Shown here: piece after piece, positions 1 to 9,831 of the stretch
Layout of the letters: every line of letters starts with the position of its first letter
Numbering within the stretch: position 1 is the stretch's first letter
Origin: a virus
Lineage: Duplodnaviria > Heunggongvirae > Uroviricota > Caudoviricetes
Virus record (IMG/VR): IMGVR_UViG_2602041644_000006
Location: 1 to 9,831 of that record
Reading direction: 5' to 3' (one strand)
DNA length: 9,831 nucleotides
Notes under the pieces: generated by a model
Told to the model about the DNA's origin: nothing
The model's database searches: none
Seen by the model: the letters and a program-made list of their open reading frames with translations, nothing else
Made by a program: the position numbers and the translations under genes

Positions 1-1314
1 CTAACCTACTGATTTTAATAAGTCTCTTGTGTCACTTTGGTGACCATGGGACATCATTGGGACATAATCTGCCAGCTTCTGATTCAGCATTGCGATCTGT
101 TCTGCATTACTGTCAGTCATCCATGCTCCGTATACATTGAATACCATCTGGGCACTTGCATGGCCCATCTGGCTGGCAATAAAGCTTGGGTTTGCTCCGG
201 CAGATAATGACCAGCACGCATAAGTGTGTCGTGACTGGTATGCTTTCCGGTGCCTGATGCCCGCACGCTTAACGGCTGTTTCCCATGAGTCGCCAATAGA
301 ATCTACCTTGTAGATAAAACCGACCTGTTTGCTTTTTCTAACCACCTGGGGGTTAAATACGAAAGTACATTCATGATTCACTGAGCGCCCATATTCACGT
401 AGTTGAACCTTGATGTGGTGCTGCTTACCCAGTCTTGTCATTTCAGCCTGATTTTTCAGGACACTGATAGCGGGCTGGATAAGATGCACAACCCTGTTTG
501 TACTTGCTTCAGTTTTAGGTAGAGTGAACTCACTGAGTTTCGTATAATTGCGCCTGATAGTAATAGTTCCTGCTTTCAGATCGATATCTTCCCAGGCCAG
601 GGAGACCAGTTCACCGTGACGCATTCCTGTGTACACAGCCAATGACCACAGGTTTTTCGTCTGCTGATGTCGGCAAGCATCTATCAGGCGAATAAATTCG
701 TCACGAGTTAGCGGATCTGGCTCTGCCCTGGCTCTTTTAAGAGGCTTAATTCCCTGGAAGGGATTTGCTTCTAAGTAACCGTGATCTGCAGCAAACTGAA
801 ACATTCCAGCGATAGTTGTCATGTAATAATTTACAGTAACGACGCTCCGTCCTTTTGCTGCTGCTTTGTTTTTCGTTGAATTCTGATACCCGGTCAGTAA
901 ATCTTTCCTGATATACAGCAATTCCTCTTTGGTTACCGATGACACCAGTCTGCTGCCTCCAATTTTCGGAACCATCGTTCTTGCAACGGATTCATAGCGA
1001 TTGAATGCATTTGCAGAGATTTCCATTCGTTTCAGATCCAGCCACTTTTCTTCAAGTTCCTTCACCGTAATTTCTTTTTTACTTACCCCAAAAGCCTGAA
1101 GGTTGGGGGAGTCAGGGAACTGTGCGGCATAATCAAAGCTTCCTGTGCGGATGGCAAAACATACCGATGTCCGCAGTTCCCCGGCGATCTTCCTGTTCTT
1201 GGCAGTGTCAGGGACACCAAGATTTTCCCTGACACGTTTACCTTTAAAATTAAACCAGATGCGTAATGTGCCGCCGTGGTTTTCGACGCCTGTTGGATAT
1301 TTGACTTTATCCAT
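1..1314 (-). CDS. int: Phage tyrosine integrase (site-specific recombinase), 437 aa
   Basis: Complete ORF: ATG at 1312-1314 preceded by a GGAGGT Shine-Dalgarno, stop (TAG) at 1-3 on the window edge. C-terminal half has the R...HxxR...Y layout of tyrosine recombinases (TGMRHGEL, RHTYACWSLSAG, FNVYGAW). Terminal position next to an excisionase-like gene fits a prophage integration module. Confidence 0.9.
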   Translation of the reverse strand: MDKVKYPTGVENHGGTLRIWFNFKGKRVRENLGVPDTAKNRKIAGELRTSVCFAIRTGSFDYAAQFPDSPNLQAFGVSKKEITVKELEEKWLDLKRMEISANAFNRYESVARTMVPKIGGSRLVSSVTKEELLYIRKDLLTGYQNSTKNKAAAKGRSVVTVNYYMTTIAGMFQFAADHGYLEANPFQGIKPLKRARAEPDPLTRDEFIRLIDACRHQQTKNLWSLAVYTGMRHGELVSLAWEDIDLKAGTITIRRNYTKLSEFTLPKTEASTNRVVHLIQPAISVLKNQAEMTRLGKQHHIKVQLREYGRSVNHECTFVFNPQVVRKSKQVGFIYKVDSIGDSWETAVKRAGIRHRKAYQSRHTYACWSLSAGANPSFIASQMGHASAQMVFNVYGAWMTDSNAEQIAMLNQKLADYVPMMSHGHQSDTRDLLKSVG

Positions 1315-1369
1315 TGATACCTCCAGACGCCCAAGAGCGATACGAGCTTACATACTTCATGGCATTAAA

Positions 1370-1606
1370 TCACCCAGGTTGTTTGTTTTTCATTGAAGCG
1401 ACCCAGGCATCTATTGCTTTTCTGTTATACATACATTCACTGGAAGGCTTTGGATTACCGTCTGGTGATACGTGAATATACTCTCTTCCAACCATCCAGC
1501 ATTCTTTCCGGGCCCGAAGAATTGTGCCTGGTTTGAGCCCGGTAATTGCGATTAGAACGCTTTCACAAACCCATTCATTGGGAGCCAGTTGAATCACATT
1601 GCCCAT
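1370..1606 (-). CDS. xis: Excisionase-like small DNA-binding protein (Xis/TorI-like), 78 aa
   Basis: Small basic ORF immediately upstream of int on the same strand. ATG at 1604-1606 has a GAGGT Shine-Dalgarno that overlaps the stop of the preceding gene. The motif WMVGREYIHV resembles the winged-helix core of lambda-type Xis. Confidence 0.55.
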   Translation of the reverse strand: MGNVIQLAPNEWVCESVLIAITGLKPGTILRARKECWMVGREYIHVSPDGNPKPSSECMYNRKAIDAWVASMKNKQPG

Positions 1607-1614
1607 GCATTACC

Positions 1615-1761
1615 TCACACAACACTCAGCCCACGGCAGTGGCACCACACTTCAAACATTCGTTTCACAATTTCACGACAGTAGAAACCGTCAACATCTC
1701 GTGTCAGGTCATAGCGATTGCCGTAACGCTGGTGGACCCATCGTTCAAATGCTTTATTCAT
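1615..1761 (-). CDS. Hypothetical small protein, 48 aa (MNKAFERWVHQRYGNRYDLTRDVDGFYCREIVKRMFEVWCHCRGLSVV)
   Basis: Not in the supplied ORF track; found by hand translation. ATG at 1759-1761 with an AGGAAG Shine-Dalgarno 6 nt upstream; TGA stop at 1615-1617 sits inside the xis ribosome-binding site, fitting translational coupling. Confidence 0.3.
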   Translation of the reverse strand: MNKAFERWVHQRYGNRYDLTRDVDGFYCREIVKRMFEVWCHCRGLSVV

Positions 1762-1764
1762 TCT

Positions 1765-2007
1765 TTACTTCCTTTTCATGGCCCGTAATTTTTTCAGATG
1801 AGCTTCCTGCTCTGTTTCTGCCAGAATTTTGCGGTACTCCTGGTGGTCAATATGTTCGAACAGGCAGTTTAACTCACCAATGCGTACCCGCCCGGATCGT
1901 CCGTCCATCCGTCGAAAGAACACTGAGTGCTCAGTGATGCGAGTAATCACCACGGGGTATCCGGCTCTGTCCGTGTATATCTGACTGCGTTGAATCAAAG
2001 CGAACAT
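1765..2007 (-). CDS. Hypothetical phage early protein, 80 aa
   Basis: The track ORF 1765..2043 starts on TTG; the internal ATG at 2005-2007 (MFALIQRSQIY...) lies 4 nt after the stop of the upstream micro-ORF and is the more likely start. Packed in the same co-directional chain. Confidence 0.4.
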   Translation of the reverse strand: MFALIQRSQIYTDRAGYPVVITRITEHSVFFRRMDGRSGRVRIGELNCLFEHIDHQEYRKILAETEQEAHLKKLRAMKRK

Positions 2008-2011
2008 GTGG

Positions 2012-2095
2012 TTATCCCCATCGACAAATCGAGAACACAACAAACGCTGCTGCGAATACCACCCCCAGAGTTACGATTGCATCACGCCAGCTCAT
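2012..2095 (-). CDS. Candidate 27-aa hydrophobic micro-protein (MSWRDAIVTLGVVFAAAFVVFSICRWG)
   Basis: Hand translation. ATG at 2093-2095 overlaps the TGA stop of the DUF551-like gene (ATGA) and uses its GGAGGTG sequence as a ribosome-binding site. The product is essentially one transmembrane helix. TAA stop at 2012-2014. Confidence 0.25.
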   Translation of the reverse strand: MSWRDAIVTLGVVFAAAFVVFSICRWG

Positions 2096-3018
2096 TGATT
2101 CACCTCCTGCGGCGGTTCTGGCAGCGGCATCCAGTGGGTTACCTCCTTGAGATACAGGTCTTCGCCACCACCGTCATCCCAAGTGGGCTTGCCATCATTA
2201 AACCAGTCGCCATATACGCCGACCTGAGTGTTGGGGATGCTTGGTGGGTAGTTGTTTTTAAAGTCAGCAGCTAACACATAGCATTGTCGCTCTCCCATTT
2301 CTGGCATTCGCTCACTACAGCTTATCCAACCATCCGGAGTTACCGGAACTTGTGGAATGGCTGTCTGCTCTCGAACGTCATTAGGCGCTATAGGTTCTGC
2401 TGCCAACTGACTGGCATATTTGTTAATGGTAACGATAAGCTCTTGCTCAGCCTCATCCAGACAATCACCGATACCTCGCCTGTCACCGTCAAAATCATCG
2501 AAATCGGCACGAATCCTGGCAACCTTCAGGATTGCGGACAACACCTCACTAGGAATTGCCGGATAGTTGGTTGACGTTTCCGCGATTTCCCGAAAATTAT
2601 TGGTTGACGAATTCTTGTTTTCCCGAAAGTTTCCGGACTGAAGCATGGCGGCGCGGCAGGCGTTCCATATTTCGGCAGCAATATCGCGCTCGCTATCGGT
2701 TAATTTGTACGTTGAAACATAGCCAGAGAGCATTTCTACGTTTTCCGGAGTTGCTTCTTCAGGCACTACCGGTGCTGGAGGGGCGGCGTAAATGCCCTCT
2801 ATCACTAAATGTTTGCGCTCAAAATCATCTGGCTCTCGATGATATACGTAACTCCAATCACCAAGGTTATCATTGCGCCTGCAACGGAAACCTATCGGCT
2901 CTGCTTCCAGCGATGCCAGAGCAATTCGTGCCAGTTCCATTTGTTCGCCACGGGTAAGTCCGTTATCAAGCGGATTTTTAATGAATAATTCGATACGTTC
3001 TTTGGTAATAGTGGTCAT
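2092..3018 (-). CDS. Phage accessory protein with a DUF551-like C-terminal domain, 308 aa
   Basis: ATG at 3016-3018 preceded by AAGGTGA. The C-terminus (GDWFNDGKPTWDDGGGEDLYLKEVTHWMPLPEPP) matches the W/P-rich signature I recall for DUF551 domains found on lambdoid early-region proteins. The N-terminal two thirds are acidic and unassigned. Confidence 0.6.
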   Translation of the reverse strand: MTTITKERIELFIKNPLDNGLTRGEQMELARIALASLEAEPIGFRCRRNDNLGDWSYVYHREPDDFERKHLVIEGIYAAPPAPVVPEEATPENVEMLSGYVSTYKLTDSERDIAAEIWNACRAAMLQSGNFRENKNSSTNNFREIAETSTNYPAIPSEVLSAILKVARIRADFDDFDGDRRGIGDCLDEAEQELIVTINKYASQLAAEPIAPNDVREQTAIPQVPVTPDGWISCSERMPEMGERQCYVLAADFKNNYPPSIPNTQVGVYGDWFNDGKPTWDDGGGEDLYLKEVTHWMPLPEPPQEVNQ

Positions 3019-3020
3019 AG

Positions 3021-3212
3021 CTATTTCACCTTAATCTCAACATTTCGCAGCTTTAGCTCTACTGGCAGGTCTGACTTTCCTGTTAATGATAATGCGAGAT
3101 TTTCTGGAGTAATGAGAGCAGTTATTGTTTTCCCCCTCGCCAGACGAATAATCATTCGTATCTCGCGATCGTCACATGCTCCCGGTCGAACAATTGATAT
3201 TTGTCCGTCCAT
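3021..3212 (-). CDS. Hypothetical small protein, 63 aa
   Basis: ATG at 3210-3212 with an AAGGAGAG Shine-Dalgarno; separated by 1 nt from the upstream stop, and its own stop is 2 nt before the next start. Confidence 0.45.
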   Translation of the reverse strand: MDGQISIVRPGACDDREIRMIIRLARGKTITALITPENLALSLTGKSDLPVELKLRNVEIKVK

Positions 3213-3213
3213 C

Positions 3214-3708
3214 TCACTCTCCTTTGATGCGAATGCCAGCGACGCGTAATGCGTGTTCTAGGTCAATCAGGTAAAGCCAACTGCCATTTTCTTTAGGTAT
3301 CATGACATGTCGCTCATCTGCATTTATCGGGTGTCCATATCGAAGGTCGTAGCGAGTCGGTAATTGAACTTCCCGCGCTTCCAGTTCAGCAATACGCTTG
3401 CACCCATCAGAGATAACTCCCTCGTAATACTCGCGCTGCTCGTTGAGTTTTGATTTTGTCTCCTCAAGCTCAACGCGCAGCTTCCCTACCGTTAGCGCAA
3501 TATCCTCGTTCTCCTGGTCGCGGCGTTTGATGTATTGCTGGTTTCTTTCCCGTTCATCCAACAATGCCAGCGCGATATCTGGCGAAAAGTGCTTCATAAA
3601 ATCGTTAAGCGCATTAATTCGCTGATCGAAAGGCATTACAGGTGCTTCACCAGCAATTTTTGTTTTTTCAGCGATTTCACGAAGCTTTTGATAATCAATC
3701 TTGCTCAC
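3214..3708 (-). CDS. Ead/Ea22-like coiled-coil phage early protein, 164 aa
   Basis: GTG start at 3706-3708 overlaps the upstream TGA (GTGA) behind an AAGGAGG Shine-Dalgarno. N-terminus MSKIDYQKLREIAEK and a long charged helical middle resemble Ea22-family proteins of lambdoid phages. Confidence 0.5.
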   Translation of the reverse strand: MSKIDYQKLREIAEKTKIAGEAPVMPFDQRINALNDFMKHFSPDIALALLDERERNQQYIKRRDQENEDIALTVGKLRVELEETKSKLNEQREYYEGVISDGCKRIAELEAREVQLPTRYDLRYGHPINADERHVMIPKENGSWLYLIDLEHALRVAGIRIKGE

Positions 3709-4118
3709 TGGTTGCCTCCTTCGCGAAGCTGTTCAGCAATACTTACGCATATCTCTGCGCCTCTAATCAGCCCCGGAACGTTCTTGTTTGGCCCAACTTC
3801 ACCATCAACAAAATCAATCATCGCGTTACGAGCCATATCCACCCCCTGCGCACGTACTTCAGCCAGGAGAGCGTCGGTAGCTGGGGTTTCCGTGAAGTTG
3901 TCCTCCCAACCGTAGTACTCCTGACGACAGAAGTTATTAAATTCCTTCTCCGACTGTTTAAGCGCCGCATTCTCCGCTGCCAGCGCCGCGCACCTGGCCT
4001 CAAGAGCGGCAACCACTTCCTGATGGTCTTTGTACTTAACGTATGAGCCGGAGATGTCATCACCTTCGGTGTTTAGCCATGCGTCATTGCAATTCACTGC
4101 GTAGGTTCTGATGCTCAT
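3705..4118 (-). CDS. Hypothetical coiled-coil phage protein, 138 aa (start at MSIRTY)
   Basis: The track ORF 3705..4238 has a junk-like N-terminal extension. The internal ATG at 4116-4118 overlaps the stop of the upstream 60-aa ORF (ATGA) and follows GGGAGAG. Contains a helical segment ALEARCAALAAENAALKQ. Confidence 0.45.
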   Translation of the reverse strand: MSIRTYAVNCNDAWLNTEGDDISGSYVKYKDHQEVVAALEARCAALAAENAALKQSEKEFNNFCRQEYYGWEDNFTETPATDALLAEVRAQGVDMARNAMIDFVDGEVGPNKNVPGLIRGAEICVSIAEQLREGGNQ

Positions 4119-4297
4119 GCTGATGCTCTCCCGCCCCTGACAGACGCCAGGCCAGTCAATAAAGTATCCGCAATGCCTACCCTCAGACGTGCGCGCAGGA
4201 TAAATGCCGTTATGACCGGCAAAATATATGCTACCCATTCATCTTGCGTTGCCTGTTCCGCCGCCTCGCGCAGTTCTTGATAGTTAATGTTGCTCAC
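4115..4297 (-). CDS. Small ORF (60 aa) with an Ea22-like N-terminus; possible truncated or frameshifted paralogue
   Basis: GTG start at 4295-4297 behind AAGGAGG, in a junction module nearly identical to the one at 3696..3720. The first ~21 residues (MSNINYQELREAAEQATQDEW) parallel the start of the 164-aa Ea22-like protein; the remainder is low-complexity. Confidence 0.3.
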   Translation of the reverse strand: MSNINYQELREAAEQATQDEWVAYILPVITAFILRARLRVGIADTLLTGLASVRGGRASA

Positions 4298-4533
4298 TGG
4301 TTGCCTCCTTTACGGATCTGCGCTGCGATGCACGAAAAAAAAGACTTTCGCGTATGACTGTTAAGAGCTGGCGCGAACGCCGCGTTAAGAACGGCGGCAT
4401 CACAGCCGTCATCGATATAGAGCGCAATTTTTTTCTCCAGGCGTGCTTTGGCTTCCTGCAACTGCATATCCCGGCACGCACGCGGGATATACTCAGCAAT
4501 TTGAGCGATAGATTTTTCGTTCTGTTTAAACAT
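4294..4533 (-). CDS. Hypothetical phage early protein, 79 aa
   Basis: ATG at 4531-4533 lies inside the end of the upstream gene (AAGCATGTTTAA) after GAGGTG. C-terminus ...QIRKGGNQ is paralogous to the end of the 138-aa protein (...QLREGGNQ). Confidence 0.45.
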   Translation of the reverse strand: MFKQNEKSIAQIAEYIPRACRDMQLQEAKARLEKKIALYIDDGCDAAVLNAAFAPALNSHTRKSFFSCIAAQIRKGGNQ

Positions 4534-4729
4534 GCTTCACCTCGATAGGCTTGATGGTATCGATCAGCAGTCGGCGGCGAGTATTTTCTGCAAAGTGGCG
4601 GCGTCCGGTTTCTTTGTGGTAAAACTCGTTTTTTCCGACGACCCACATCCGCTTTGTCTGGTGCAGTTTTTTTACCTGCGGACCGTCTCGGGTGATAACA
4701 ATTCCTGTATGAGTTTTTATCACGCTCAT
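4526..4729 (-). CDS. Hypothetical basic small protein, 67 aa
   Basis: ATG at 4727-4729 overlaps the TGA stop of the upstream gene (ATGA). Basic composition. Confidence 0.45.
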   Translation of the reverse strand: MSVIKTHTGIVITRDGPQVKKLHQTKRMWVVGKNEFYHKETGRRHFAENTRRRLLIDTIKPIEVKHV

Positions 4730-5088
4730 TTTTTATTCTTCGGTGCTTTCGGCATTACTGCCCAGTGAGTGATATTGACGTTTTCAAGGTCCCCGACCTG
4801 AAATGTCCACAGCCATTCTCCGGTTTCTTTTTGTCCCCAGGTGTACCAGAGAGAACGCCAGCCAATTAGCCAGCCTTCTCCGTTAGCATCAAATAACAGA
4901 ACACTTTCATTTGCTGGCGGCAGTTCAGCTGACACTGGTATTATTTTGTTTTCCAGTGCCGCGCATTTAGCTTCAAGCGCATCGAATTTACGTACCAGGT
5001 ACTCAGCATTTGTTTCATTCACTTTCAGATCTCGTGGTACACATTTCCCGCGAAGAAACCCTTCCATTTCGAAAACATTCATGCGCAT
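4726..5088 (-). CDS. yfdS: YfdS-like prophage protein, 120 aa
   Basis: ATG at 5086-5088 with GGAG 8 nt upstream. Length and position directly after a YfdR-like gene match my recollection of the K-12 CPS-53 yfdP-yfdQ-yfdR-yfdS order. The symbol is assigned from memory, not from an alignment. Confidence 0.55.
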   Translation of the reverse strand: MRMNVFEMEGFLRGKCVPRDLKVNETNAEYLVRKFDALEAKCAALENKIIPVSAELPPANESVLLFDANGEGWLIGWRSLWYTWGQKETGEWLWTFQVGDLENVNITHWAVMPKAPKNKK

Positions 5089-5615
5089 TTGCGTAACTCC
5101 GATAACTCGTTAAAACGTTCCATAAACATCCCGTAGGCATGGCCTGGTGACAGTGGAATAACTTTGAACATCTCTGTCGCCGGGATACCTTCCAGTACAG
5201 GCCAGAAAGAGCCATCATCAAGCCCGAGATCGCGACGTTCGGTTGCCAGCATAATGAGATCGGCATATTTCACTGGCGTGCTCATAACAGGAGGTAACCC
5301 GTATTTCTCACGGATTACGGCGTCTATTTTTTCTTCCATCCGTTTATAGTCAGGAAGAAGGCGTTTCAGTGGAGCTGGGATGTCCTGGCAATACGCTTCT
5401 GTTGCATCATGCATTAACGCTTCAAAAGCAAATTCCTGCGGCACCAGCTGGCTGCAAAGCACCGCATGTTGGGCGACGCTGTAGAAGTGAGAAAGATGAC
5501 CGGCAAAGCGACAGATATTTGAAAGGGAAACCGCGATATCGTTAATAACGATGTCATCTTTATTTATCTTGTCATAATAAAAATGCTTCCCGGAAAAAGT
5601 TTTAATAAATGACAT
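5079..5615 (-). CDS. yfdR: HD-domain phosphohydrolase, YfdR-like (5'-deoxynucleotidase family), 178 aa
   Basis: The track ORF starts on GTG at 5642; the ATG at 5613-5615 (MSFIKTF...) has a GGAGAA Shine-Dalgarno 5 nt upstream. H...HD signature is visible (AQHAVL ... LMHDATEAY). Size and neighbours fit CPS-53 YfdR. Confidence 0.7.
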   Translation of the reverse strand: MSFIKTFSGKHFYYDKINKDDIVINDIAVSLSNICRFAGHLSHFYSVAQHAVLCSQLVPQEFAFEALMHDATEAYCQDIPAPLKRLLPDYKRMEEKIDAVIREKYGLPPVMSTPVKYADLIMLATERRDLGLDDGSFWPVLEGIPATEMFKVIPLSPGHAYGMFMERFNELSELRKCA

Positions 5616-5708
5616 TTTGTTCTCCACGTATATGCGCTGCACCGCGCTGAATTTGGGTAAAAGGAAGCCCTCACCATCCGGTGATTATTGAGTTAATTAC
5701 GTTTCCAT

Positions 5709-5730
5709 AAATGCCCCCGCAGGGGCATTT
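5709..5730. other. Perfect intercistronic hairpin (9-bp stem AAATGCCCC / GGGGCATTT, 4-nt loop) between yfdQ and yfdR
   Basis: Read directly from the sequence. It sits in the 127-nt gap after the yfdQ stop, which is the only sizeable gap in the minus-strand chain. No adjacent U-tract on either strand, so it is probably not an intrinsic terminator. Confidence 0.4.
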
Positions 5731-5742
5731 GCAGTAATGAAA

Positions 5743-6567
5743 TCAGGCGGTGAAAGTACCAATAAAGGTTTCTACTTTGCTGTCTTTGAATTTCTCAACA
5801 AGCAGATCACGAAATTCGTTAGCCATATCTTCCTGCACCGCTTCCAGCTGAATAATGCGCAGAACCAGTACAGGACGATCGCCAGTGATAATGCTGAGGC
5901 GTAATTTAAACGGACGTTCTTTCAGACCTTCAAACGGAACGCATTTAAATTCAAATGCCACTGGCATAATGTCTTTGGTCTTCGCTTCGACAGATTCCAT
6001 CAGGGAGCGTTTGCCGCTGAAGTCATTATCTTCAAAATCAGCGGTCTGGTTTGCTTCAATCGTGATTTTACGGATTGCCGCAGCCGCTTTTGTTGCCTGA
6101 ATGGCGTCACCATTAGCATCAAAGCCCACAAGGTAGTCGGCCCAGTCTTCAATCCATTCTGCCAGTGATTTCTGGGAGTTACGCTCGCCGTTAACAGACA
6201 ACAGGGCAGAGAACGGTGCTGTCTTTTTCAGTTTGAGAGTGGCGGTGTTATCTGCGTGACCTGGTTCATCAATAGTACCCAGGTTAAGCACACTGACGGC
6301 ACGCATATTATCAGCATCGATAAAGCAGCGGGTGCCTTCATCTGCAAGATCTTTAGAATAACGGGTAAAGTCATCGATGCTGGCAGTGGAAAGCGCACCA
6401 CGGAAACGGAAGCGATTTAAATTAAATTTTTCCAGATCATGAATGCGGAAATTCTCAGGCAATGCCACAGCATCGGCACCAATCTTACTGATAATTTCAT
6501 TAACACCCTGAGCAGAAATAAGGGCATGGATTTGATTAATTGCGGTTGCGTCTAAGTTCTGAGACAT
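5743..6567 (-). CDS. yfdQ: YfdQ-like prophage protein (DUF2303-type), 274 aa
   Basis: ATG at 6565-6567 with a GTGAGGA Shine-Dalgarno. Length and position between YfdP-like and YfdR-like genes match CPS-53 yfdQ as I recall it. Confidence 0.7.
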
Positions 6568-6632
6568 AATAAGTCCTCACTATATTAAGATATTCAGTGA
6601 TGAGATAAATAATCAGTTAATTAAGAACGATA

Positions 6633-6995
6633 TTAATGACCTGCTGCGCGGAGTTTTCCGTCAGGTTCACCGGCAAGAGTCAGTAATTGTCCCTGGTCTT
6701 CCTGCAGAATAGTCAGGCGACCACCGCGATTGACATACATCGGCGTTTCGGTGGTGTCTTCTTCAGAAATTTTCCCGCGGTTAGTCGGGCGAACATATGA
6801 GAGTTTGTGTTTGATTTTCACACGGTTCTCATCAAACGGTTCGATTTCCAGGTTGAGCGAGACCTTACCTTTGGTTTTCGTGTTCATCACACCGGAAGCG
6901 ACTTCACTGAGAACTGCGCCGATTTTGGTTTCAAATACGCCGCCGTCCAGCTCCCCGATAAATGCCTGCACATCAGTACTGCGTTCGCTAGCCAT
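6633..6995 (-). CDS. yfdP: YfdP-like prophage protein, 120 aa (start at MASERSTDV)
   Basis: The track ORF 6633..7313 carries a junk-like in-frame extension across the GC-rich leader. The ATG at 6993-6995 has an AGGAGCAG Shine-Dalgarno and gives a 120-aa product. Confidence 0.6.
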   Translation of the reverse strand: MASERSTDVQAFIGELDGGVFETKIGAVLSEVASGVMNTKTKGKVSLNLEIEPFDENRVKIKHKLSYVRPTNRGKISEEDTTETPMYVNRGGRLTILQEDQGQLLTLAGEPDGKLRAAGH

Positions 6996-7043
6996 TTTGC
7001 TGCTCCTCATCATATCGACCCTGCAAGGTCGGTTAGTTTCTCC

Positions 7044-7132
7044 ACAAAACAGAGAAGAACACCTGCGGTGACTGCCGCCCGGATGGATTGGGTTATGAGC
7101 CCGTCGTCCGGTGATGCTCTTCTCTGTTTTGT
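7044..7132. repeat. 15-bp perfect inverted repeat (ACAAAACAGAGAAGA ... TCTTCTCTGTTTTGT) enclosing a 59-nt GC-rich insert with nested short stems
   Basis: Arms at 7044-7058 and 7118-7132 are exact reverse complements. The insert contains further complementary pairs (CCGGA/TCCGG, GCGG/CCGC). Confidence 0.6.
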
Positions 7133-7140
7133 AAAAAGGA

Positions 7141-7177
7141 CGGTACCAGCCGGAAGCAAGGGTACAAGCTGGTACCG
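7141..7177. repeat. 10-bp perfect inverted repeat (CGGTACCAGC ... GCTGGTACCG) with a 17-nt loop
   Basis: Arms at 7141-7150 and 7168-7177 are exact reverse complements, immediately next to the 15-bp inverted repeat. Confidence 0.6.
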
Positions 7178-7396
7178 CCAGGACTACACACAGCATAAAG
7201 TTGTGGTGCCGGGTGCCTCCCGGTGCCTGGCGAAGGTTGCACACCAGGCGGGTGGGTATCCACAGAAGGTCGACTGTCAGCCTCAACCTTAACCCGCGTG
7301 CGCTGAGCCGCATTCACCACAACGCTAAGGATTCTCTCTGGTTGAAAATACTTAGCTGTTATGTGCCTGCTTTTAGCCACATCAGGCGAGGTGGAC

Positions 7397-7448
7397 CTGG
7401 TTATTCCCCAACAACAAGGATTCGGTTAATCTGGTTATCCCCAACAAC
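7397..7448 (+). repeat. Two direct repeats CTGGTTAT(T)CCCCAACAAC, 34 bp apart, just upstream of the 7464 start
   Basis: Copies at 7397-7415 and 7431-7448 differ by one inserted T. A third partial CTGGTT occurs at 7338-7343. The sequence after each core diverges. Confidence 0.55.
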
Positions 7449-7463
7449 GCAAAAGGAAAAGAA

Positions 7464-7898
7464 ATGTCCGGTAATATCTACACGCTATACAAATCCCACT
7501 GTGAAAATGTTGGAAAGTATCGGGGCATTGAAATCAGTGGGGTAGTGTCATCAGTCGAAATAAGCAAAGTTGAATCAAGGGCAACATTACTTACTCTTTT
7601 GGACCTTGTCTTACATGAGCACCGGAAGAAATTCGGCACTCCCTATAATCAGTTGAATGGGAAAAAGGCTCTGGTTCACCTTATTCTGATGAAGCATCAC
7701 TGGATGCCAAAACAGATTAATGAGATGAAATTTGATGAACTTCTTCTTTCAATTCAGGATGAACTCACACTTGATAAAATAAGCGTAACCGCCCAGAAAT
7801 TTTTAGATTATCGAGACTGGAGATCACAAATTCATCACTTTGATGATTTTGACGAAAATGAATGGGATCCTAATTTGTCTGCACAATATCTAAAGTAA
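7464..7898 (+). CDS. AT-rich opposite-strand gene, 144 aa, unknown function (possible moron)
   Basis: ATG at 7464 preceded by AAAGGAAAAGAA. It is the only plus-strand gene left of cro, visibly more AT-rich than the adjacent leader, and its last 29 nt overlap the 3' end of the convergent 68-aa gene. I recognise no family for the product. Confidence 0.6.
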   Translation: MSGNIYTLYKSHCENVGKYRGIEISGVVSSVEISKVESRATLLTLLDLVLHEHRKKFGTPYNQLNGKKALVHLILMKHHWMPKQINEMKFDELLLSIQDELTLDKISVTAQKFLDYRDWRSQIHHFDDFDENEWDPNLSAQYLK

Positions 7899-8076
7899 CA
7901 TCCTGTGATAAAACCGTGATTTCCTGATCCAGTTTTTTTAAGGAGTCTATTGTTTCCTGTCGATAAGACAGCACTTCACGAAGCTGGTTTATAGCTGCCA
8001 GCTTCTTTGTCATCCACTCATAAATTTCCTCATCTGTGTAGCCAGGCGCGACGATTTTGGGTTCTGTTTTGTGCAT
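7870..8076 (-). CDS. First gene of the leftward early operon, 68 aa, unknown function
   Basis: The track ORF starts on TTG at 8091; the ATG at 8074-8076 has a GAGGAG Shine-Dalgarno 8 nt upstream. It lies downstream of the predicted PL and the boxA-like element. The N-terminus is not arginine-rich, so it is not obviously N-like. Confidence 0.5.
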   Translation of the reverse strand: MHKTEPKIVAPGYTDEEIYEWMTKKLAAINQLREVLSYRQETIDSLKKLDQEITVLSQDVTLDIVQTN

Positions 8077-8120
8077 TTCACATCTCCTCAAGTTATCAGT
8101 TACTTGTTGATGGGGACCAG

Positions 8121-8133
8121 ATTGTTAAAGAGC
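8121..8133 (-). promoter_or_regulatory. rrn-type boxA match (GCTCTTTAACAAT on the minus strand) in the PL leader
   Basis: Matches 13 consecutive bases of the E. coli rrn leader boxA (TGCTCTTTAACAATTTA) as I recall it. It sits directly 3' of a hairpin, in the boxB-then-boxA order of rrn leaders, about 45 nt upstream of the 68-aa gene start. Confidence 0.5.
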
Positions 8134-8134
8134 T

Positions 8135-8160
8135 AAGCGTCCTGTAGGGCGCTTTTTTGT
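8135..8160 (+). terminator. Intrinsic terminator on the plus strand (8-bp stem, UGUA loop, U6 tract); on the minus strand the same hairpin is weaker and has no U-tract
   Basis: AAGCGTCC-TGTA-GGGCGCTT followed by TTTTTTGTT. On the plus strand the stem includes one G-U pair; on the minus strand that position is a C-A mismatch. Positioned to stop plus-strand transcripts from the 144-aa gene before PL and cI. Confidence 0.6.
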
Positions 8161-8241
8161 TGCTAACGAATCATCCTGGACTTCATATGCCCCAGGCGGC
8201 TACTTCGTGGGCGTCCTGCCTGTTCGTTATCTTTGATATAA

Positions 8242-8270
8242 AATCTAACTTAACTTAGTTATTATGGCAA
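8242..8270 (-). promoter_or_regulatory. Candidate PL promoter (-35 TTGCCA, 17-nt spacer, -10 TAGATT) overlapped by an operator
   Basis: Read on the minus strand: TTGCCA (8265-8270), 17 nt, TAGATT (8242-8247). The operator 8245-8258 spans the spacer and -10. It lies directly downstream of the cI stop, the expected position for OL/PL. Confidence 0.4.
8245..8258. promoter_or_regulatory. OL-type operator CTAACTTAACTTAG (CTAA-N6-TTAG family)
   Basis: Same 14-bp dyad pattern as the two sites between cI and cro. Extra CTTAG half-site-like motifs occur at 8281-8294 and 8303-8311. Confidence 0.5.
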
Positions 8271-8323
8271 GAGAAAACACCAAACTTTTCTTAGTTCGGT
8301 GCCTTAGTTAGAGAAGAGAGGTC

Positions 8324-8950
8324 TTAGAGTTCGTATTGAACTCCTTTGACTACACCAATGATAAGGCAATTACCATTGATAGGGATGTTGGGATACCGAG
8401 GATTTAATGGCACTAAAAACTTTTGAGGGCCATCGATGACTAATTTTTTTACTGTAGCTTCGTTTGTTCCATCAAGTCGAGCGATGACTATTTTTCCATG
8501 ACGAGGTTCTGCATCTGGATCTACAATCACTGTTGCGCCTTCTGGTATTGTTGGGAGGCCATTAGGGTTAGTCATGGAGTCACCTTTAACCTCTAATGCA
8601 AATGAGTTATCACCAATCTTTAATGATGTATCTACCCACTTGTCCACTTCACTAAACACTTCTGCTGCCCTGCACTCAGTAAACTGCCCAGCCTGAACCC
8701 ACGATATTACAGGAACTCTGCGCATGTTTGTGACGAGTTTGCCTTCAAACTCAGCACCATAAAGAATGTAATCTATTGACGTATTGAAGAACTTCGCTAA
8801 TTTCGAAAGTGCCTCCCCACCAGGGGTATTGATGTCTTTCTCCCAGTACCCCACAGCAACGTCGCTTACTCCACAAAATTTACCCAATTCTTTCTGGGAC
8901 GTTCCGGTAACTCTTCTCAGAGCTTTTATACGCTGACCAACCGTTTCCAT
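8324..8950 (-). CDS. cI: CI-type prophage repressor (HTH plus LexA-like S24 autopeptidase domain), 208 aa
   Basis: N-terminal helix-turn-helix (QKELGKFCGVSDVAVGYWEKD), an Ala-Gly cleavage-site candidate (VQAGQF), and the Ser/Lys dyad context (GDSMTNP ... TVKKLV). Divergent from a cro-like gene across an operator-rich 97-bp spacer. Confidence 0.9.
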   Translation of the reverse strand: METVGQRIKALRRVTGTSQKELGKFCGVSDVAVGYWEKDINTPGGEALSKLAKFFNTSIDYILYGAEFEGKLVTNMRRVPVISWVQAGQFTECRAAEVFSEVDKWVDTSLKIGDNSFALEVKGDSMTNPNGLPTIPEGATVIVDPDAEPRHGKIVIARLDGTNEATVKKLVIDGPQKFLVPLNPRYPNIPINGNCLIIGVVKGVQYEL

Positions 8951-8972
8951 AGGAGCACCATTTCTTGAATTG

Positions 8973-8986
8973 CTAAGTAATCTTAG
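8973..8986. promoter_or_regulatory. OR-type operator CTAAGTAATCTTAG (perfect CTAAG/CTTAG dyad)
   Basis: 14-bp palindrome in the cI-cro spacer, just upstream of the predicted PR -35. Confidence 0.55.
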
Positions 8987-8992
8987 TTTTTA

Positions 8993-9021
8993 TTGACCAA
9001 AGATAGATTTGTAATTAGCAT
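8993..9021 (+). promoter_or_regulatory. Candidate PR promoter (-35 TTGACC, 17-nt spacer, -10 TAGCAT)
   Basis: TTGACC at 8993-8998 and TAGCAT at 9016-9021, flanked by operators, about 27 nt upstream of the cro start. Confidence 0.45.
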
Positions 9022-9035
9022 CTAACAAAACTTAG
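9022..9035. promoter_or_regulatory. OR-type operator CTAACAAAACTTAG
   Basis: Second CTAA-N6-TTAG site, centred 49 bp from the first and directly after the PR -10, where bound repressor would block PR. Confidence 0.55.
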
Positions 9036-9047
9036 TTTGGAGGGCGT

Positions 9048-9248
9048 ATGACAACTGACGATATCGAAAGCTACTTCGGCAGTATTGAGAAAGTTGCTGC
9101 TTTTTTCGGCATAACAACTGAAGCCGTTTATCAGTGGCGAAACCGTCCGGGCCAGTTAATTCCAAAAGGACGTGCAGCAGAAGCTGCATATAGAACTTGC
9201 GGACGGTTGCCATTTAAACCTGAGCTTTATGAAAAATCTAATGGATAA
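9048..9248 (+). CDS. cro: Cro-like small HTH regulator, 66 aa
   Basis: ATG at 9048 with a GGAGGG Shine-Dalgarno. Divergent from cI, with a helix-turn-helix-like segment (IEKVAAFFGITTEAVYQWRNR). Confidence 0.75.
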   Translation: MTTDDIESYFGSIEKVAAFFGITTEAVYQWRNRPGQLIPKGRAAEAAYRTCGRLPFKPELYEKSNG

Positions 9249-9831
9249 ATCGATTAACAGAAACCACAGAACGATGAGGCTAACCGTGGGTAAGCATCAC
9301 TGGAAAGTAGAAAAACAGCCTGAGTGGTACGTGAAAGCTGTCAGAAAAACTATCGCAGCGTTGCCGGGTGGTTACGCTGAAGCAGCTGACTGGCTGGATG
9401 TAACAGAAAACGCATTATTTAACCGCCTTCGTGCCGATGGCGATCAGATTTTCCCGCTGGGATGGGCAATGATTTTGCAACGTGCTGGTGGAACTCACTT
9501 CATTGCTGACGCTGTGGCGCAGTCTGCAAATGGCGTCTTTGTGTCTCTTCCTGACGTCGAGGATGTGGACAACGCCGATATTAACCAGCGCCTGCTGGAA
9601 GTCATTGAACAGATTGGCAGTTATTCCAGACAGATTCGTTCGGCAATCGAAGACGGTGTGGTGGAACCGCATGAGAAGACAGCAATTAACGAAAAAATGG
9701 TGGAAAGTACGTGTCGAACGTGTAGGTATCCCGATGTTAACAGCCATCCCCCTACTGACATTGCCGCAATTTATTATGCTGCAATACGTCAAAGGGAAAG
9801 CGGAAAGTTGGCCTGGACTGTCATTGTATGA
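9241..9831 (+). CDS. CII-like / YdaT-like regulatory protein downstream of cro (start uncertain)
   Basis: Long ORF right after cro ending in TGA at 9829-9831. In-frame starts are possible at 9172 (inside cro), 9229, 9241 (ATG overlapping the cro stop) and GTG 9286 (with GAGG upstream). Family assignment is by position and general character only. Confidence 0.55.

Follow-up and report, generated by a model that had tools for sequence, protein, structure and literature searches.

A convergent, 3'-overlapping gene pair behind the predicted leftward early promoter of an SfIV/SfV/e14-like prophage

The DNA analyzed here, hereafter the window, comprises positions 1-9,831 (9.8 kb) of the IMG/VR virus record IMGVR_UViG_2602041644_000006 (Caudoviricetes) and represents the left arm and the immunity region of an SfIV/SfV/e14-like lambdoid prophage. 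Within it, a minus-strand gene for a protein of 68 amino acids (aa) and a plus-strand gene for a 144-aa protein converge and overlap at their 3' ends. The two genes belong to families that recur as a convergent pair in enterobacterial phages and prophages, and in the window the pair fills an exchangeable cargo slot. The layout is of a known kind; the pair of gene families and its portability are new.

The gene pair and its surroundings

As outlined in Table 1, the two genes run towards each other and share 29 bp of coding sequence (7870-7898). The open reading frame (ORF) listing and the sequence agree exactly on this overlap, as a first-pass annotation of the window had stated. For the minus-strand gene the 68-aa form was preferred because a GAGGAG ribosome-binding site (RBS) lies 7 nt upstream of its ATG; a 73-aa form with a TTG start was judged less likely. 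Both ORFs are real genes and not chance frames, since each of them matches a family profile over its full length. The 144-aa protein belongs to the ECs1072 family (NCBIfam NF033230, residues 4-144, 157.8 bits at a curated cut-off of 70 bits, E 1.7e-46) and matches phrog_5286 end to end (1-144, E 1.5e-90), and the 68-aa protein, a YdfC-like small coiled-coil protein, matches phrog_1744 (YdfC) over 1-68 of its 68 residues (E 6e-35). The annotated ydfC genes of Qin-type phages show 39-41% identity to the latter over 97% of its length.

The AlphaFold2 model of the 144-aa protein is all-helical and soluble (predicted local distance difference test, pLDDT, 82), and no relative of this protein was found in Pfam, PADLOC, PDB or BFVD. 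Likewise, none of the 5027 defence models of PADLOC-DB 2.0 recognized either protein at E <= 0.1. No homology of the 144-aa protein to SieB was detected by Pfam or PHROG, the genomic position alone being equivalent. For the 68-aa protein there was no Pfam match above threshold; NICE-3 and CheZ, the only Pfam/NCBIfam matches, scored far below threshold and were discarded. The ECs1072 family comprises approximately 65 clusters at 50% identity among 1.8 billion representatives, and all members with an identifiable source genome originate from enterobacterial phages or prophages. In the microarray study of Bergholz et al. (2007), which carries no strand or partner information, ECs1072 is among the genes whose expression changes significantly at a growth transition.

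From right to left the window reads cro, cI and, after 232 bp of intergenic sequence, the 68-aa gene and the 144-aa gene; some 470 bp of non-coding DNA separate the latter from yfdP, which is followed leftward by yfdQ (DUF2303), yfdR, yfdS, more early genes, xis and int. The region of ~1 kb around the pair is 100% identical in Escherichia phage vB_EcoM-689R6 and E. coli S1-JOR-02-A, and Shigella phage SfIV shows 98.5% identity across the same region.

Table 1 Features of the convergent gene pair and its surroundings in the window (listed from left to right).
Feature	Position	Strand	Details
yfdP	6633-6995	-	First conserved early-left backbone gene past the cassette; annotation of an identical E. 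coli locus; phrog_204
STnc100-like structured RNA between cassette and yfdP	7130-7353	-	Rfam RF02076
Upstream region / 5' leader of the 144-aa gene	7395-7463	+	Alignment; breakpoints at 7448
144-aa gene, ECs1072-family phage-associated protein	7464-7898	+	ATG start; TAA stop 7896-7898
Overlap plus degenerate palindrome	7863-7898		Palindrome TGGGATCCTA (7863-7872); sequence
68-aa gene, YdfC-like small coiled-coil protein	7870-8076	-	ATG at 8076; TAG stop 7872-7870
Hairpin inside the 68-aa coding region, weak U-run after it	7980-8012	+	-15.6 kcal/mol, z = -4.2
Inverted copy of the CTGGTTATyCCCAACAAC motif, right cargo edge	8101-8125		Brackets the segment together with 7426-7449
Intrinsic terminator of the plus-strand unit	8135-8160	+	8-bp stem with G.U pair, then TTTTTTG; common to all plus-oriented cargo variants
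Conserved structured leader of the pL transcript, candidate nut/put-like antitermination element	8165-8228	-	Conservation in 7 genera
Candidate pL with two OL operator copies	8242-8296	-	Motif search; operators 8245-8260 (over the -10) and 8281-8296
Candidate pL	8270->8242	-	Promoter scan; -35 TTGCCA 8270-8265, 17-nt spacer, -10 TAGATT 8247-8242
CI-type repressor	8324-8950	-	HTH_3 and Peptidase_S24; annotated elsewhere as LexA family protein
cro	9048-9248	+	

Pairing across relatives and the exchangeable slot

The pairing was surveyed in 169 fetched loci, which are highly redundant and hold 38 distinct family proteins, and in five loci that were looked up independently. Nearly every ECs1072-family gene in these loci faces a small opposite-strand partner overlapping its 3' end by 29-95 bp, and such pairs were observed in Escherichia, Salmonella, Klebsiella, Serratia, Hafnia, Izhakiella and Shimwellia. 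The overlap amounts to 29 bp here, 44 bp in locus L006 (52% identity), 71 bp in prophage ST64B (29% identity), 74 bp in Serratia quinivorans and 83-95 bp in Klebsiella phages; the gene calls of the source records give 92, 71, 74, 71 and 53 bp for E. coli M056, Izhakiella, Serratia fonticola, Hafnia and Shimwellia, respectively. The convergent 3' overlap persists down to ~25-35% identity, and this distribution argues that it is more than chance. In E. coli the DNA of the 144-aa gene is present in 420 and that of the 68-aa gene in 424 of 5426 complete genomes (~8%), which indicates that the two genes travel together.

Most copies of the pair are located between Q and the holin gene, the copy of Sakai Sp4 lies between a cII-like gene and O, and the copy in the window follows pL. 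In every context the small gene points in the direction of the surrounding lytic operon and is promoter-proximal, and the large gene points the opposite way. What the analysis yields as a by-product is a defined and widespread two-gene module in at least 7 enterobacterial genera with conserved polarity to lytic operons.

The relationship among the small partners was followed with a hidden Markov model (HMM) built from 11 sb50-like partners, sb50 being the partner in ST64B. Its alignment to the 68-aa protein covers residues 2-60 (19.7 bits, E 3.6e-8 for a single comparison), and in a six-frame search it also recovers Qin YdfC (E 4e-5). According to this HMM, the small partners form one YdfC/sb50 superfamily. 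Pairwise BLASTP (E 1e-4) and a thin profile-profile comparison, the latter with a probability of 17%, did not establish the relationship by themselves. In locus L005 the partner is frameshifted.

A further detail concerns the overlap itself. The codons TGG-GAT-CCT encode W134-D-P of the 144-aa protein, and W134 is invariant across 32 ECs1072-family members. In ST64B a perfect palindrome, TGGGATCCCA, gives W-D-P on both strands, including the conserved W-D-P of the partner. We infer that the TAG stop of the 68-aa gene is placed where sb50-type partners read TGG, which would explain why the overlap in the window is the shortest of those seen.

Some loci deserve mention in their own right. In prophage Sp4 of E. 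coli O157:H7 Sakai (locus L183, 19117-19852) the gene that gave the family its name, ECs1072 (current designation ECs_5703), runs against the direction of the pR operon in which it lies, and an unannotated plus-strand ORF overlaps it by 317 bp. The product of this ORF is a full-length phrog_8304 protein, which at its N-terminus matches the YdfC family (hhalign 61%, E 8e-5); the phage and genome annotations of the locus pick different strands. In a Shimwellia blattae prophage (locus L192, 1779-2414) a HicA/HicB toxin-antitoxin pair immediately precedes the ECs1072-family gene and is oriented like it, and together they constitute a small accessory island between the lysis genes and the Q region. 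In the post-pL slots of Pantoea phage AH07 (locus L185, 749-1164) and Yersinia phage YeP1 (locus L186, 683-1173) a small leftward gene faces a small rightward one, with a 30-bp gap and a 4-bp overlap, respectively; a head-on gene pair seems to be a recurrent solution for this slot.

Comparison with sister phages and prophages shows that the flanks are kept and the middle is replaced, some relatives sharing cI and pL with the window and others the yfdP side. Unrelated cargo was found at the same slot in six sister loci. For rightward replacements, encoding proteins of 242, 171, 159 and 141 aa from two unrelated PHROGs, the homology stops at 7448 and restarts at 8108/8117; for leftward replacements (orf33 of SfV and a helix-turn-helix protein of mEp460) it stops at 7394 and restarts at 8165. 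None of the cargo proteins of the sister loci was recognized as a known exclusion gene, the sole recognized type being the HTH_17 protein of mEp460. The first-pass annotation had regarded the 144-aa gene as a gene of prophage maintenance; the exchange among sister loci identifies it instead as cargo. As described for accessory loci termed morons, the cassette is inserted amid backbone genes and exchanged among related phages (breakpoints 7394/7448 and 8108-8165), and it possesses its own terminator (8135-8160, 7 loci).

All rightward cargoes have the upstream 70 nt and the terminator at 8135-8160 in common, and because of these shared elements the slot can be regarded as a ready-made 'expression socket' opposing pL. 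Its edges are formed by inverted repeats (7426-7449 and 8101-8125) sitting exactly at the homology breakpoints, with a predicted duplex energy of -25.2 kcal/mol compared to -9.5 ± 3.2 kcal/mol in control windows. A strong edge duplex was also predicted for five of the six other plus-cargo loci, the exception being locus L006, and the energies range from -23 to -28 kcal/mol over five locus types. These repeats could bring the 5' and 3' ends of the cargo mRNA together by base pairing; alternatively, they could allow the pL transcript to loop out the cargo, or they could indicate a boundary of recombination.

Transcription signals and expression of the ST64B homologue

The promoter scan returned one good leftward promoter of sigma-70-like type, the candidate pL between cI and the 68-aa gene. 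The 16-bp operator motif CTAAN5CTTAGTT was found four times in the window compared to 0.14 expected matches, and none of 200 shuffles reached four; a pattern with a 6-nt spacer was not enriched and was dropped in favor of the enriched 5-nt form. Two of the four matches lie at the predicted pL and two between cI and cro, and we read them as the left (OL) and right (OR) operators of CI. Given pL and these operators upstream of it, the 68-aa gene would be the first ORF of the early-left transcript. The suggestion of the first-pass annotation that leftward early transcription runs antisense through the entire 144-aa gene is borne out by these predicted motifs, as a pL transcript has to cross that gene to reach yfdP-yfdQ-yfdR-yfdS.

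The leader of the pL transcript (~70 nt) is kept in phages of Escherichia, Shigella, Salmonella (ST64B), Citrobacter, Pantoea, Yersinia and Klebsiella, irrespective of the downstream gene. In its comparative fold (RNAalifold) the outer stem is GCGAA/UUCGC; the hairpin, CCNGG-loop-CCNGG, has five pairs, two of which show compensatory changes. The single-sequence fold was no better than that of shuffles (z = 0.0), and no Rfam family matched. We consider the leader a candidate antitermination RNA.

On the opposite strand, the upstream region of the 144-aa gene (7395-7463) contains two direct copies of CTGGTTATyCCCAACAAC and a -10-like TAATCT at 7427-7432, which reads TATAAT in two sister loci. 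This region is retained when the cargo is replaced and also moves with the gene into unrelated backbones. No plus-strand gene lies upstream of the 144-aa gene within the prophage. Downstream of it, a hairpin begins 82 nt beyond the stop codon (7980-8012) and may act as a partial first terminator of the plus-strand transcript. The sole strong plus-strand terminator (8135-8160) lies past the start of the 68-aa gene, and consequently the plus-strand transcript would be antisense to the whole 68-aa gene and its RBS, and the overlap at the transcript level would be far above 29 bp. Due to the G.U pair in its stem, the terminator hairpin is ~4 kcal/mol more stable on the plus than on the minus strand in 7 of 7 loci, and the T-run is present on the plus strand only.

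Between the cassette and yfdP, the STnc100-like RNA matches RF02076 over the full model length with 42.4 bits (E 1.2e-6), below the gathering score of 47. It is closed by a leftward terminator (7179->7137) with a 13-bp stem followed by UCCUUUUU (-23 kcal/mol, z = -3.6), and pL transcripts must pass both the antisense 144-aa gene and this terminator before reaching yfdP. The stretch 7130-7353 is annotated as a 'frameshifted hypothetical protein' in RefSeq, and the homologous stretch of K-12 e14 is called ymfH; the position of the RNA is that of kilS in Rac and of DicF in Qin. It is overlapped by a 226-aa ORF (6633-7313, minus strand), an upstream extension of yfdP which we regard as artefactual because only the 120-aa form (6633-6995) is backed by family profiles and RefSeq.

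Expression data were available for the homologous pair of prophage ST64B. Owen et al. 2020 (PMC7067206) singled out STMMW_20121 as a candidate accessory locus (moron) with a promoter of its own and a transcript antisense to lytic genes; it alone was treated as a candidate moron, and the paired overlapping architecture and the family were not described. This locus was identified as the ECs1072-family ORF because it measures 435 bp and is located between the holin gene and a 360-bp gene, overlapping the latter by 71 bp. The ORF (locus L017, 1936-2370, minus strand; NC_004313, 36435-36869; 144 aa) is unannotated in the reference phage record and faces sb50, which corresponds to STMMW_20131. STMMW_20121 is 29% identical to the 144-aa protein (E 5e-16) and matches phrog_5286.

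In the published strand-resolved bulk RNA sequencing of lysogens under 17 conditions (table in PMC7067206), the median expression was 113 transcripts per million (TPM) for STMMW_20121 and 93 TPM for STMMW_20131, compared to ~4 TPM for the holin gene and the upstream STMMW_20141. STMMW_20121 was expressed at 70-270 TPM in 16 of 17 conditions. No anticorrelation was observed between the two genes of the pair (Spearman +0.37, p = 0.14, n = 17). Only the small gene, and not the large one, follows the expression of the holin gene (Spearman 0.59, p = 0.012). In ST64B the small gene is probably read from a late promoter, perhaps a constitutive one, and not from a CI-repressed pL. These data refer to a promoter context different from that of the window, and bulk RNA is compatible with exclusivity in single cells.

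Related loci and the function of the pair

The order of the window corresponds to the plan of lambda and Rac: repressor, pL, small leftward gene, rightward accessory gene, leftward structured RNA and early genes. In the lambda record N (35037-35438, minus strand) abuts the convergent sieB (34482-35036, plus strand) just downstream of pL/nutL. In K-12 Rac the order is racR, ydaG, ydaF (minus strand), sieB (plus strand, overlapping ydaF by 4 bp), the small RNA kilS (minus strand) and kilR. In both cases the first small genes of the pL operon likewise converge on a rightward, autonomously transcribed accessory gene that lies within the leftward operon, and in Rac kilS comes next on the leftward strand, as does the STnc100-like element in the window. 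Unlike SieB, the 144-aa protein is predicted to be soluble and helical and not a membrane protein, and it lacks similarity to SieB; the 68-aa protein is neither N nor YdaF, and the window genes form a conserved pair that is also found in other operons. The striking overlap thus belongs to an ordinary lambdoid design with a counter-oriented passenger gene after pL, as with sieB, which tempers any regulatory claim.

The head of the Qin dicBF operon (ydfA-ydfB-ydfC-dicF-dicB) provides the counterpart for the small gene: ydfC, whose product is homologous to the 68-aa protein, is also promoter-proximal in a repressor-controlled operon of early-left type and is followed by an untranslated region that holds the small RNA DicF. 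Unlike the window, Qin-type loci contain no ECs1072-family gene. In ST64B the large gene of the homologous convergent pair is antisense to lytic genes as well, and the pair resides between Q and holin, not after pL.

Convergent-promoter interference is known from pR/pL of coliphage 186, and 3'-overlapping type I toxin-antitoxin pairs from the Bacillus prophage loci txpA/RatA and bsrG/SR4; where face-to-face units yield overlapping RNAs, reciprocal repression or RNase III-dependent decay is a known outcome. Unlike txpA/RatA and bsrG/SR4, both partners in the window are conserved genes that encode proteins, and there is no short hydrophobic toxin among the two. The pair does not fit a type I toxin-antitoxin system, which combines such a toxin peptide with a non-coding antitoxin RNA, as both partners (68 and 144 aa) are protein-coding with full-length profiles; the one feature in common with such systems is the convergent 3' overlap. 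Unlike the interference pairs, the one data set available (ST64B) shows no reciprocal expression.

With a probability of roughly 60%, we interpret the pair as a portable accessory module that is expressed from the prophage and in which mutual antisense is intrinsic, its most likely effect being reduced expression of the large gene when the lytic promoter fires. The module would fill the exchangeable slot right after pL, which equals in position and polarity the place that sieB takes next to N in lambda and next to ydaF in Rac. The 144-aa gene would represent an autonomous rightward unit with its own conserved upstream region and strand-specific terminator and, by analogy with the ST64B homologue, would most likely be on in the lysogen, and the 68-aa gene would be read from pL and repressed by CI at OL. 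After induction, pL transcription would read the 68-aa gene, cross the 144-aa gene in antisense and have to pass the terminator at 7179-7137, presumably in a termination-resistant form conferred by the leader (8165-8228). Mutual antisense and polymerase collision would be built in, and with the lytic promoter active they would probably reduce the output of the 144-aa gene. Transcriptional interference at this locus is physically plausible, and collision and antisense are to be seen as properties of the cassette, not as a lysis-lysogeny switch.

Several observations weigh against this interpretation. No sigma-70 consensus promoter was found by the scan for the 144-aa gene, and a weak TTCCCC-17-TAATCT arrangement is all that can be read as a promoter upstream of it. 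The ST64B partner is also on in lysogens at the median level given above, and expression of the small gene only after induction may consequently not generalize. Furthermore, locus L004 has no partner, some Klebsiella-type loci carry a nonsense-truncated partner, and Qin-type phages possess YdfC alone; the pairing is accordingly frequent, not obligatory.

Would the convergence itself constitute a dedicated interference or antisense switch, plus-strand transcription blocking the early-left operon in the lysogen and pL shutting down the 144-aa gene, so that the transcripts are mutually exclusive? pL and the plus-strand unit indeed face each other across ~800 bp, and the plus-strand mRNA would be complementary to the 68-aa gene over its entire coding sequence and its RBS. 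However, there are sister phages that share pL, leader and backbone with the window but not the pair, or that have a different cargo in its place, in part transcribed in the direction of pL, and the silence of pL in the lysogen is already explained by CI at OL. The pair is mostly found far from pL, between Q and holin, which argues against the overlap as an adaptation of the early-left operon; the first-pass view of it as a feature of that operon thus gives way to that of a portable two-gene module. Its expectation of mutually exclusive transcripts is at odds with the ST64B lysogens, where both genes are expressed together at ~100 TPM; this is an outcome that the first-pass annotation had itself named as refuting its view, albeit observed at the population level and under other promoters. 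Such a switch is hence rather improbable. Even less can be said for a neutral by-product, in which unrelated small genes are packed tightly and the overlap is kept since the W-D-P codons form a palindrome readable both ways. The variable overlap length (29 to 95 bp) would fit, the palindrome TGGGATCC(C/T)A accounts for the C-terminal WDP of the partner mirroring that of the large gene, and other convergent small pairs with little or no overlap occupy the same slot in Pantoea AH07 and Yersinia YeP1. The homologous pairing nevertheless survives ~25-35% identity, at least 3 insertion contexts and seven genera, a conservation which is hard to explain without a functional link and leaves this explanation a slim chance.

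A defence or exclusion module with self-immunity is conceivable, if unlikely: the large protein would be a lysogen-expressed anti-phage or abortive factor and the YdfC-like protein its antagonist, switched on from the prophage's own pL, pR or pR' as convergent transcription turns down the large gene. The location in the sieB slot, the moron hotspots in all three contexts with the small gene always co-oriented with and promoter-proximal to the lytic operon, the expression of a homologue in lysogens from its own promoter, the correlation of the small ST64B partner, and not of the large gene, with holin, and the HicAB pair beside the module in Shimwellia all point in this direction. The lack of any match among the PADLOC models and of a fold relative argues against it, as do the expression of the partner in uninduced ST64B lysogens and the partner-less or partner-truncated copies, in which the large gene shows no obvious decay. 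Similarly tentative is the notion that the layout serves as a sensor of the phage's own lytic promoters. The large protein would then be produced in the lysogen and would target the cell or incoming phages, firing of pL, pR or pR' would produce the small antagonist, and head-on transcription together with double-stranded RNA would silence the large gene, resulting in self-immunity of the induced prophage.

Under the preferred reading of a portable accessory module, the pair is a concrete candidate for a function in exclusion, defence or modification of the host that is expressed in the lysogen, with one homologue highly expressed in lysogens, and it offers a natural test case of whether head-on transcription matters in prophage accessory loci.

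A minor observation concerns the motif ATCTGGTTATCCCCAACAAC, of which a 17/20 copy is present at 2006-2025 on the plus strand, where none is expected by chance. This copy is antisense to the RBS/start region of the leftward gene ending at 1765, and the 5' leader of the cargo mRNA could in principle pair with the mRNA of that gene.

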